From NCBI GenBank assembly GCA_018240425.1, contig JAFEFU010000029.1, positions 9,460 through 73,459 on the forward strand: DNA of 64,000 nt. Direction: 5' to 3'. Position numbers and translations under genes: made by a program. The stretch is from Pseudomonadota bacterium (lineage in GTDB: Bacteria > Pseudomonadota > Alphaproteobacteria > Rhodobacterales > Rhodobacteraceae). Below are positions 34,060 through 36,481 of the stretch, piece by piece (the first letter of the stretch is position 1; the number at the start of each line of letters is the position of its first letter). Below the pieces are notes generated by a model, which saw only the letters and a program-made list of their open reading frames with translations, searched no databases and was not told the origin of the DNA.

Positions 34060-34087
34060 GGTCCGCGAGAGCTTCGGCCAGGTGGTA

Positions 34088-34525
34088 ATGGCGCTGATGA
34101 ACCTGCCGCGCTACCGGCATCAGTCGCTGGGCGACCTGACCCAGATGGTGCTGGAGCCGCTGATCCGCGACCGGATCGCCATCGCGCGACCGGCGAAGGA
34201 AGAGCCGGGGATGCTGACCGATATCGCCGGCTTCGCGATCTGGGCCTCGGTCAGCGAAGAGGTGGACACGAAGATCCGCGAGCAGATCAAATCGGGCACC
34301 TTCCCGATCCGGCTGAAGCCCGAGGATTGGCAGAGCGGCACCATCAACTGGCTCCTTGACGTGATCGCGCCGGACCGCAAGACGGCCGGCCGGGTCATCG
34401 CCAATTTCAAGCAGGTGGTGAAGGAAGGCGAACTCAGGATGCATCCGCAGATCGTCGGGCTGATCGACCAGGAGATGCTGGAGAAGATCACCGCCGCCGC
34501 GGCTGGAACGGCCGCGCAAAGGTGA
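34088..34525 (+). CDS. HlyC/CyaC-family toxin-activating lysine acyltransferase homologue
   Basis: GFAIWASVSEEVDTKI....LKPEDWQSGTINWLLDVIAP..KTAGRVIANFKQVV parallels E. coli HlyC AYCSWANLSLENEIKY...[33 protein letters not shown]. Candidate starts are the GTG at 34082 and the ATGs at 34088 and 34097. Confidence 0.8.
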   Translation: MALMNLPRYRHQSLGDLTQMVLEPLIRDRIAIARPAKEEPGMLTDIAGFAIWASVSEEVDTKIREQIKSGTFPIRLKPEDWQSGTINWLLDVIAPDRKTAGRVIANFKQVVKEGELRMHPQIVGLIDQEMLEKITAAAAGTAAQR

Positions 34526-34570
34526 GGATGTCGGCGGCGGGGCAACTGCCCCGTACCGGCGGCAACAGAG

Positions 34571-34595
34571 GCCCAGGCGGGCGACCCGCCTGGGC
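34571..34595. repeat. perfect 11-bp-stem hairpin (gcccaggcggg cga cccgcctgggc)
   Basis: Read directly. It lies in the 172-nt spacer between the acyltransferase gene and the next ORF. No U-tract follows it. Confidence 0.6.
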
Positions 34596-34697
34596 ATGAA
34601 AACACGGCCCTGACCGGAGGCTTCCGATGAACCCTTGCTCTTCCATGCGGCAGACGCATCTGACCCCCCGGCAGCGGTACGGCGGGGGGCTTCCGGC

Positions 34698-35465
34698 ATG
34701 AGGCGGATTTTGCGGGTTTTCGCCTGGCTTGTCGTGCTGATCGCCGGCCTGCCGCTGCTGGCCGTCGGGGCCTATATCGCCTGGACCTGGCTGAACACCG
34801 CGCATGTGCGCTGGCACCAGCGGATGGAGCTGGTGATCGAGACGCCCACGGGCGAGATCCGGGGGGCGGCGGTGCAGGAGGCGCGGCTGACCGCCACGCG
34901 CGGCGAATTGCGCCATATCATGGGGGTCAACGGTGCGACCGCCGGTTATGGCTTCAAGGGCGAGGCGGTGGTGGTCGAGGTGGCGCCGGGGCGCTGGCTC
35001 TTTGCGCTGTTGAAGGGCGGCGAGGGTGATCTGGGCAGTCCGGGGCTGAACCTCGCCACGCTGGCCGGCCGGCCGCAGCGGCTATACCCGGCGACGGAAG
35101 CGGCGGCGGCGGCGGTCAAGGCCCTGCCGAAGGACCAGCCGCTGCCGCTGACCCCCGACCTCTACCCGCTGATGGTGACCTTCGACGACATTAGCGACCC
35201 CAAGAGCGTGCGGCAGGTCGACCCGGCCGACCTGGCGGCGACCTTCGGCCCCGGGGTGGCGCTCAAGGCGGTGACGCTCGCCGTGACCGACGCGCCGGTC
35301 ACTGAGGGGAAGGTCGAGGGAGTGTTGGGTGATCTGGCAGCGATGGGTCGGCGTGTCGATCCAGCAACGCGAATCCAATATCCTCCCGGCTTCCCGGAGG
35401 CGAAGATACCCACCGATGCGAAATATTTTGACGTTAGCAGCTTCAAGACAGGACTCTACAAATGA
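34698..35465 (+). CDS. hypothetical single-pass membrane protein
   Basis: ATG at 34698 ([32 protein letters not shown]) followed by a ~220-aa soluble domain with no motif I recognise. Its stop overlaps the start of the next ORF (ATGA). Confidence 0.5.
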
Positions 35466-35738
35466 CCATTTCCAAGGATCTTTTTCTCGCCATCCTGTCG
35501 ATGGATGCCTACAATCGAGAGTATGGGGCTGGCATAGATCTTGGGCCCAACACCGCCATCGGCGATGCTACAATCAAAGATCGTCAACTTTACGGGGTCG
35601 GTCCGGAGAAGTATGCCGCTTGGCAAGCCGCCGGTTTTTACGCGGTGGCCTACACGATCGGCGCTGGGGTTGACGATATCGCGCCCGGCACCACGGTGAT
35701 TTCCTACCGGGGGACGGACAATTCCAGCCCTTCGGGCT
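35462..35738 (+). pseudogene. 5-prime fragment of a lipase class 3-like (probable RTX/large secreted toxin) gene, truncated at a REP element
   Basis: The ~90 codons ([22 protein letters not shown]...[10 protein letters not shown]...[11 protein letters not shown]) resemble the region upstream of the GxSxG nucleophile in Lipase_3 proteins. Similarity ends where REP1 begins (35739). GC content here is visibly lower than the surroundings. Confidence 0.5.
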
Positions 35739-35825
35739 GTAGGGTGCGCTTCAGCGCACCACTCCTCCGACGACGCTCCCCCCATAACCCTCTCGGCGGA
35801 CCCGGTGCGCTGAAGCGCACCCTAC
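35739..35825. repeat. REPIN: two identical 22-nt REP hairpins in inverted orientation
   Basis: REP1 at 35739-35760 is gtagggtgcgcttcagcgcacc. REP2 at 35804-35825 is ggtgcgctgaagcgcaccctac, its exact reverse complement. Each is GTAG plus an 8-bp stem (GGTGCGCT/AGCGCACC). The spacer is 43 nt. Confidence 0.85.
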
Positions 35826-36358
35826 TCCCCTGCCCACCGCTCACAAAATACGCTGTCCGGAACGGTTCCCGCCCACTCCGGCTCGACCCGACCCACCCGA
35901 ATGTCCCGGTGGATCGACGAATAGGACCAATCCACTGCCCGTTCGACCAGCCCGTGCTTCACCGGGTTGATCCAGCAATACCTCACATGCGCCTCAAGGT
36001 CCGCTTCGTCCCGGATATGGTGCTCCCAGAATCGCCGCTGCCAGATGCCTTTCTCGCGGCGGAACTCGTGACTCTCTCGCAGCCGCCCCGCCGGCAGCCC
36101 GCGCGTGAACCGTGCCTTGATCGCGCCCCACCGCACCGAATAATCCGCATTCCCCTCCGGCAACCACCAGACCGCATGCAGGTGATCCGGCAACACCACC
36201 CAGGCCTCGATCCCGAAGGGTCGCGCCGCCCTGACCGCCGCCACCGCCGCGCGCAGACGGCCGACCTCGCGCACCAGCAGATCCGACCGCCGGTCGGCGA
36301 GCGCGACAGTGAAGAACACAGAGGCGCCGGGAGCGCGCGGGCGGAGGTAGCCGGGCAT
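35822..36358 (-). CDS. REP-associated tyrosine transposase (RAYT, IS200/Y1 HUH family)
   Basis: 178-aa ORF with HUH motif LPDHLHAVW and catalytic-Tyr region [15 protein letters not shown]. Its TAG stop lies within the GTAG of REP2. Confidence 0.88.
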
Positions 36359-36481
36359 GCGCCCGATCCTGTATCCGCACGGTTAACGAACCCTTGCCGT
36401 GCGCGCCGGCCATTGCACGGCACGCCCGGGCTTGCGATAGAGATGGCGCGCCGCGCACGGGCGCCCTGGACGGAGATCGGG

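Follow-up and report, generated by a model that had tools for sequence, protein, structure and literature searches.

Probable remnants of a toxin cassette and a transposase unit inserted between ybaB and recR, a closely spaced gene pair in related bacteria

The subject of this report is the interval between the genes ybaB and recR in a 64-kb stretch of DNA (hereafter, the window), which was analysed together with homologous loci from related genomes. The genes dnaX (31954–33693), ybaB (33706–34059) and recR (36482–37081) follow each other in this order on the forward strand of the window, as established from the list of open reading frames (ORFs) and by family scans. Both ybaB (117 amino acids, aa; Pfam YbaB_DNA_bd, 1.9e-27) and recR (199 aa; Pfam RecR HhH, ZnF, Toprim_4 and RecR_C) are intact. 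The tblastn matches of ybaB in relatives extend to residue 117, and the recR genes of relatives are 67–85% identical to that of the window. These two genes bound a block comprising, from left to right, an HlyC-family acyltransferase gene (hlyC'), a gene for a membrane-anchored protein, the beginning of a class-3-lipase-like gene (lip'), two inverted repetitive extragenic palindromes (REPs) forming a REPIN, and an oppositely oriented gene for a REP-associated tyrosine transposase (RAYT). These are the five elements which an initial annotation had placed between the end of ybaB (34059) and the start of recR (36482); all of them were recovered by the ORF list and the family scans and had been named correctly, save that the 5' truncation of the HlyC-family gene had been missed.

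The usual state of the locus can be judged from 80 related loci fetched with YbaB as the query and labelled in the style of L001. The window derives from a member of the Paracoccaceae, and the closest relatives of both its YbaB and DnaX belong to Frigidibacter (85–87% identity). In 75 of the 80 related Paracoccaceae loci, recR is located downstream of ybaB on the same strand; the gap between the two genes does not exceed 150 nt in 68 of these 75 loci and 30 nt in 33 of them, and only 2–10 nt separate the TGA codon of ybaB from the recR start codon in five of six aligned relatives. Homologues of hlyC, the membrane-protein gene, the lipase gene or the RAYT gene were found in none of the 80 loci (tblastn, 1e-5). 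Thus, the view taken in the initial annotation, i.e., that ybaB and recR are normally contiguous and that the block interrupts them, is borne out, and since the block is absent from the related loci, it is lineage-specific.

The ybaB/recR junction is nevertheless not inviolable in the Paracoccaceae relatives: other inserts or rearrangements occur there in 11 of 79 informative related loci. Four genomes of the roseobacter group harbor a gene of about 350 aa with a signal-peptide-like N-terminus between ybaB and recR (L031:8347-9393, L056:8346-9413, L060:4214-5281 and L066:8411-9436), apparently a different, unrelated and older occupant of the junction coding for a secreted protein, and a 644-nt insert resides there in L078. 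In L003, the gene after ybaB encodes an ATPase of the AFG1 family (L003:8318-9471), and a near-identical ORF, itself not scanned, begins in L002; candidate DUF2125- and ChaC-like ORFs, named by eye only, come after ybaB in L008 (L008:1616-3234). In these three loci, representing Frigidibacter and its allies, recR is absent within 3–8 kb of ybaB, which indicates that the link of the two genes was lost there independently through rearrangement. In L020, recR lies upstream of dnaX.

The first gene of the block, hlyC' (34061–34525, with the ORF proper at 34082–34525, forward strand), belongs to the toxin-activating acyltransferases (TAATs) of the HlyC family, as documented by its match to PF02794 (38.2 bits vs. 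the gathering cutoff of 25, E = 1.6e-9, profile positions 6–90) and by 1529 homologues, of which the named ones are annotated as toxin-activating lysine-acyltransferase. Its close homologues, 65–93% identical to it, comprise 185–210 aa, but the ORF of the window encodes only 145–147 aa. The family alignment (A1) features a conserved N-terminal segment, ...LRxQVRESFGQVVMA, a part of which (VRESFGQ) is encoded in frame at 34061–34081, immediately after the ybaB TGA, with no start codon upstream. The blastn homology to five independent full-length hlyC loci (L081 and L224–L227) commences exactly at position 34059, where the ybaB stop codon ends. Since the conserved segment is cut and the homology starts at 34059, hlyC' is truncated at its 5' end, having lost about 46 N-terminal codons together with its native promoter. 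The residual ORF could start from GTG 34082 or ATG 34088, the latter preceded by an AGG 5 nt upstream.

The sole meaningful fold match of the predicted model of the hlyC' product in the PDB is the acyltransferase ApxC (4WHN), with a match probability of 0.97 and E = 4.6e-3 but a TM-score of only 0.42; the alignment spans all 147 residues of a model of modest quality (predicted local distance difference test score, pLDDT, of 65). A profile search of the PDB sequences with the hlyC alignment retrieved nothing, ApxC included. The catalytic His/Asp dyad of TAATs is represented by His24 and Asp93 in ApxC (PMC8510554). In alignment A1, His13 of hlyC' is nearly invariant and its Asp93, located in the motif WLLDVIAP, is invariant; the two are candidate counterparts of the dyad. 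As it stands, the locus does not amount to a complete TAAT gene with its toxin: some 46 codons are gone, and the only adjacent toxin gene is a stub of 87 codons. Other homologues of hlyC reside on plasmids of Phaeobacter, Ruegeria and Sphingopyxis, some of them as orphans.

In the spacer between hlyC' and the membrane-protein gene (34526–34697), folding revealed a hairpin at 34571–34595 with a perfect GC-rich stem of 11 bp and a 3-nt loop (z = -2.0). No U-tract follows it, and the corresponding spacers of relatives show no conservation of it; for want of such conservation, it was dropped as a meaningful element.

The second gene (34698–35465, forward strand, start codon ATG 34698) encodes a protein of 255 aa with a confidently predicted helix at residues 2–34, consistent with a membrane anchor; the single-sequence AlphaFold model is otherwise unusable (pLDDT 40). 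Scans against Pfam and NCBIfam returned no family for either this protein or the lipase stub. The membrane protein is 45–49% identical to the products of the genes preceding the lipase genes in L081 and collinear with members of 248–249 aa in L091 (Hoeflea), hence the gene appears to be of full length. The family to which it belongs is large (2900 representative clusters, typically of 220–260 aa) and has no curated counterpart. Judged by gene order only, its members are possibly immunity or other partner proteins.

The third gene, lip' (35462–35722, forward strand), starts with an ATG overlapping the stop codon of the membrane-protein gene (ATGA, 35462–35465) and retains the first 87 codons of a class-3-lipase/RTX (repeats-in-toxin) toxin gene. 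Its product is 45–50% identical to the N-termini of two L081 proteins (146 and 775 aa) displaying Lipase_3 and HemolysinCabind matches. The homology ends at ISYRGTDN (35722), before the nucleophile motif GHSLGG present in L081 and P0122, and the stub itself lacks the GHSLGG elbow, RTX repeats and any Pfam match. No further toxin fragments were found elsewhere in the window. The toxin gene is thus broken after codon 87, and the toxin function would have been lost.

How these three genes belong together is seen in L081, a contig of Frigidibacter sp. SD6-1 which is plasmid-like and carries ParA/ParB, resolvase and integrase genes. There, hlyC (195 aa) is followed by a membrane-protein gene (368 aa), a lipase stub (146 aa), a second membrane-protein gene (361 aa) and a lipase–RTX gene, the 775-aa product of which combines Lipase_3 with RTX repeats; both membrane-protein/lipase pairs overlap by ATGA, like the pair in the window. 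Because L081 has the three genes intact in the identical order, hlyC', the membrane-protein gene and lip' are one cassette and not separate arrivals. This cassette is often plasmid-borne in alphaproteobacteria. It is also modular, combining a conserved activator with a variable pair of partner and toxin genes: in L224 and L225, compared with positions 34059–35270 of the window, hlyC is 90–93% identical but the adjacent membrane-protein gene just 45–48%.

Several side observations concern the stubs. The best 120 database matches to the 87-aa lipase N-terminus are all of 153 aa or less, and several of them come from contigs of considerable length. A membrane-protein gene and a stub occur as tandemly repeated pairs in Frigidibacter (L081:7830-8270) and Hoeflea (L091:5001-5456 and 6323-6697), and in Profundibacter (L090:5001-5273) such a pair is separated by an insertion sequence (IS). 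N-terminal stubs of this lipase toxin family therefore seem to be common. The genes following hlyC on the Ruegeria pomeroyi megaplasmid were tried as a further pair of this kind and rejected, since they proved unrelated by tblastn.

The 3' end of the membrane-protein gene (its last ~135 nt) and the start of the lipase gene are spanned by a low-GC patch (35330–35722), in which the windowed GC content drops to 0.53–0.57 vs. 0.69 in the whole window. The initial annotation was right in that the stretch at about 35330–35740 is richer in AT than its flanks; the suggestion that it marks a second acquisition was not upheld. Five of five homologous units from three genomes (the window, two units in L081 and two in L091) show the dip at this junction, their GC content there being 9–27 points lower than in the membrane-protein gene body; the dip falls on the part encoding the variable C-terminus of the protein. 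Hence, the patch is intrinsic to the cassette and provides no evidence for a second acquisition. Its GC content across these units (L081 at ~7550–7850 and ~9200–9350, L091 and the window) ranges from 0.43 to 0.59 compared with 0.64–0.71 in the gene bodies.

The right part of the block is a standard RAYT with a REPIN on its 3' side. The RAYT gene (35822–36358, reverse strand, 178 aa) is intact: it matches the NCBIfam equivalog NF047646 over model positions 2–146 of 146 (174.1 bits vs. the cutoff of 80, 1.5e-51), and both the HLH form of the HUH motif (in PDHLHAV) and the motif YxxxNP with the catalytic Tyr can be read straight from the translation. Its homologues, 72–77% identical, are common in Paracoccaceae. 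The REPIN (35734–35830, with arms at 35734–35760 and 35804–35830) consists of two inverted REPs, each made up of GTAG and GGTGCGC-N4-GCGCACC, at 35739–35760 on the forward and 35804–35825 on the reverse strand, with a 43-nt spacer between them. They form a perfect stem of 22 bp (fold z = -8.3), and two copies of the 22-mer REP occurred in none of the shuffles of the window. The TAG stop codon of RAYT resides within the GTAG of the adjoining REP, so the inverted GTAG-tagged REPs directly flank the transposase gene on its 3' side as its cognate REPIN. The same geometry is found in L218 and L219, where the same REP (GTAGGGTGCGC-N4-GCGCACC) forms a REPIN immediately following the stop codon of RAYT; L219 has a second REPIN upstream of RAYT, unlike the window, where there is no 5' REPIN.

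The REP core itself is widespread, being detected in at least 120 metagenome stretches, often as doublets, with 19 doublets among 80 loci. The doublet occurs in one copy only in the 64-kb window and the overlapping contigs of the same species. A REP of the same family (L157:763-784) was also noticed directly after the 3' end of a recR (77% identical) on a metagenome contig of 1.3 kb, i.e., downstream of the gene, unlike in the window.

Between the RAYT start and recR lies a spacer of 123 nt (36359–36481) comprising the 5' flank of RAYT, the right junction of the block (~36470–36476) and the ribosome-binding site of recR (GGAG at 36472–36475, 6 nt upstream of the ATG). The hairpin reported here by the initial annotation does exist, with an 8-bp stem of TGCCGTGC and GCACGGCA at 36395–36402 and 36415–36422, but the spacer as a whole folds no better than its shuffles (z = -1.4). 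The hairpin (36395–36422) was also tried as a REP, since it is located where other RAYT loci have a REPIN, and was rejected because it does not belong to that REP family. A scan for sigma-70-like promoters found no site within 36359–36481, and the only one near recR is located inside the RAYT gene on its antisense strand (36117–36144); no U-tract terminator was found between ybaB and recR. Accordingly, the promoter on which recR must rely in this spacer according to the initial annotation is no more than putative, and read-through into recR is as plausible as a new promoter. Additionally, the frame of the lipase stub runs without a stop codon across the REPIN, the antisense strand of RAYT and the spacer and continues in frame into recR, giving an ORF of 539 aa (35462–37081); with about 14% of 253-codon windows being open in this GC-rich DNA, this ORF is probably due to chance and was not retained as meaningful.

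The origin of the block is recorded in its junctions. At the left one (34059–34062), located from the start of the blastn homology and from the spacer alignment, the ancestral ...TGAGG passes into the cassette sequence (C)AGGTCCG, the two having AGG in common as a 3-nt microhomology, which points to illegitimate recombination. At the second (35722/35723), the toxin gene breaks off 12 nt short of the REPIN arm (35722 vs. 35734), and the third is situated about 6–12 nt upstream of the recR ATG. Three broken, illegitimate junctions are thus documented, and it is these, rather than base composition, on which the composite origin of the block rests. The claim of the initial annotation that the block was assembled from more than one acquisition therefore stands in part: the broken junction at 35722/35723 makes it composite, but the argument from composition falls, and the first three elements are one cassette.

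Taken together, these findings make it probable that the block arose by a lineage-specific insertion of non-functional remnants of mobile DNA into a ybaB/recR spacer of a few nucleotides. Its left part (34060–35722) represents what decay has left of the core of a modular toxin cassette, which in its intact form comprises a conserved HlyC-type lysine acyltransferase, a variable membrane-anchored partner (possibly an immunity protein) and a class-3-lipase/RTX toxin. Its right part (35734 to about 36473) is the RAYT with its 3' REPIN, adjoining the truncated toxin gene. More than one order of events is conceivable: the RAYT–REPIN unit may have cut the toxin gene before or after the arrival of the latter at the locus, or a larger insert may have been trimmed by deletions which stopped at the ybaB and recR boundaries. 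By the insertion, recR would have lost whatever coupling to ybaB the ancestral spacer of a few nucleotides allowed and would use its own GGAG, being transcribed by read-through or from an unmapped promoter. Likewise, hlyC' (from ATG 34088, with the AGG before it) and the membrane-protein gene may ride on the dnaX–ybaB transcript by read-through.

Several points weigh against this interpretation. The block has no target-site duplication, integrase, terminal repeats or tRNA, so the route of the insertion is only inferred. It does not resemble a classical integrase-type island either, as neither a tRNA (in the scan of 30–39 kb), nor an integrase among the ORFs, nor a flanking direct repeat was found; since the Rfam and tRNA scans of 30–39 kb were empty, tRNA-targeted integration or a known RNA element is ruled out. 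Furthermore, no damage is apparent in the membrane-protein gene, and the canonical acyltransferase domain is retained in full by hlyC', so that speaking of debris may overstate the loss of function. Finally, a segment of 176 nt within the membrane-protein gene (34840–35015) is spanned by the window's own contig only; the other assemblies break there, apparently at paralogous repeats.

The retained domains invite an alternative in which the block is a functional module: hlyC' would serve toxins encoded elsewhere, the membrane protein would act as an orphan immunity protein against the lipase toxins of neighbouring cells, both genes would be expressed from the dnaX–ybaB transcript, and recR would be regulated independently. 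Such a module is conceivable given that hlyC' spans the canonical domain (positions 6–90 of the Pfam profile and, in the predicted model, an alignment to ApxC over 147 residues), that the His and Asp positions show little or no variation in the family alignment, that an AGG is located 5 nt upstream of ATG 34088, that the membrane-protein gene is of full length, and that paralogous cassettes are probably present elsewhere in the genome. The contrast between hlyC (90–93% identity) and its partner (45–48%) is also a pattern typical of a toxin/immunity module. Still, hlyC' lacks the N-terminal segment that is conserved in its subfamily, the immunity role is deduced from gene order only, with a structure model of pLDDT 40, and the contigs of the same species are all identical, so selection is not measurable. 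Overall, retention of function seems rather unlikely.

A related and tentative idea, which seems rather improbable, is that alphaproteobacteria possess an undescribed family of polymorphic lipase toxins dependent on acylation, the variable unit of which would be the pair of membrane-protein and lipase genes, with the conserved low-GC junction as its recombination point and with the window keeping an orphan immunity gene under the dnaX–ybaB promoter. This would explain the tandem arrays of partner genes and N-terminal stubs as well as the orphan stubs in L081, L090, L091 and the window.

In a weaker variant of this idea, RAYT/REPIN units would be located preferentially at breaks in ultra-conserved operons, as markers of these breaks or as their cause. 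In L219 (3881-4608; also in L220 and L221), a 72%-identical RAYT with GTAGGGTGCGC..GCGCACC REPINs on both sides is located directly upstream of rpmC-rpsQ-rplN-rplX-rplE, its neighbours on the other side being TetR, cyclase and IS genes; the ribosomal-protein string is broken at rplP/rpmC, which parallels the ybaB/recR case. It could hence be argued that the activity of RAYT itself made the break, its transposase or REPINs targeting tightly coupled gene junctions and bringing in, or recombining with, the toxin fragment. The distance of 12 nt from the end of the toxin gene to the REPIN arm fits this scenario as well. However, there are two such cases only, REPs are absent from the left end of the block (34060) and from the recR junction, the RAYTs of other relatives reside in ordinary contexts, and in the literature RAYTs are mostly single-copy and vertically inherited. 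A RAYT-made break is accordingly regarded as very unlikely.

The breaks of the other assemblies raise the question of whether the block is an artefact, in which a left half (ybaB, hlyC' and the 5' part of the membrane-protein gene) and a right half (the 3' part of that gene, lip', REPIN, RAYT and recR), maybe the two ends of a rearrangement, were joined via a paralogous repeat. The ybaB–hlyC' junction recurs in one independent assembly of the same organism, and in another lip', the REPIN, RAYT and recR are contiguous as they are in the window. Short-read contigs of this organism reproduce dnaX–ybaB–hlyC' exactly, six of them stopping at 34617, 34776 or 34839, and others start at 35969, 35980 or 36464. 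A contig of a metagenome-assembled genome from NCBI ends near 35002 and covers the region from 35016 through recR; all of its 12 mismatches fall within its terminal ~100 nt, and contig ends were also noted at 35016–35097. Such contig ends and clustered mismatches indicate paralogous copies of the membrane-protein and RAYT genes elsewhere in the genome. Against an artefact, the window comes from a longer contig which spans the region without a break, the membrane-protein ORF runs on across the 176 nt and remains collinear there with its family members, and a single insert is the most economical explanation given that ybaB and recR are neighbours in relatives. The pair would be split by the same elements either way, and a misassembly is judged highly improbable. 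Lastly, an old arrangement fixed throughout the family, the case which the initial annotation had proposed to check by synteny, is almost certainly wrong: other material does occupy the junction in some relatives (L031, L056, L060 and L066; 644 nt in L078), but those inserts are unrelated genes, no homologue of hlyC, the membrane-protein gene, the lipase gene or RAYT resides at the site in any of the 80 related loci, and the gap is 2–10 nt in five of six aligned relatives.

Under the preferred interpretation, an insertion of mobile-DNA remnants, the block is an ordinary kind of event involving known types of elements. In the dnaX–ybaB–recR operon of E. coli, ybaB and recR are translationally coupled and co-expressed (reviewed in PMC9610160). 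The window has the same order and orientation of the genes, and the gaps of 2–16 nt in its relatives are consistent with co-expression as in E. coli; it differs by the 2.4 kb between ybaB and recR, including an opposite gene and a 22-bp hairpin. With the described REPIN–RAYT systems (PMC3116915, Bertels and Rainey; GTAG-tagged REPs, PMC3733652), the block shares the HUH/Tyr transposase, the inverted REP doublet, the GTAG with a GC-rich palindrome and the geometry at homologous loci. It differs from them in having a single REPIN in 64 kb with no 5' REPIN, and in the location of RAYT at a non-syntenic site inside a conserved operon, described systems being mostly vertically inherited.

The left part of the block can be compared with two kinds of toxin systems. 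As in RTX toxin operons with a TAAT of the HlyC/ApxC type (PF02794, 4WHN), the acyltransferase gene leads the cassette, and the intact relative L081 has an RTX-repeat protein after the acyltransferase. The cassette differs in that its toxin is class-3-lipase-like and not a pore-forming haemolysin, in the membrane-protein gene between acyltransferase and toxin, and in the lack of adjacent hlyB/hlyD; in the window, moreover, the acyltransferase gene has lost its 5' end, and only 87 codons of the toxin gene are left. The other system is CdiC–CdiA, a contact-dependent inhibition system of class IV in which a non-RTX effector is lipidated by a TAAT (PMC8510554). It demonstrates that enzymes of the HlyC family occur alongside polymorphic toxins acting between bacteria, and the layout of hlyC followed by the membrane-protein and lipase genes resembles that of a conserved acyltransferase with a variable pair; in L082, an Imm11-like gene and a gene for a protein of 8061 aa follow hlyC. 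The window differs in having no homologues of CdiA or CdiB.

The block demonstrates that the tightly linked ybaB–recR junction can absorb mobile DNA with both genes kept, and it offers a natural case for studying how recR is expressed once it has been uncoupled from ybaB. As a caution regarding method, a local GC dip can be a trait of a gene family and not a sign of separate acquisition. The toxin cassette family and the RAYTs at operon breaks are more interesting leads than the insertion event itself, the former including a large family of unannotated membrane proteins, the partners of which are lipase-like toxins and a conserved acyltransferase of the HlyC type. Should these prove to be toxin/immunity modules, toxins dependent on lysine acylation would extend beyond the RTX cytolysins and CdiA.

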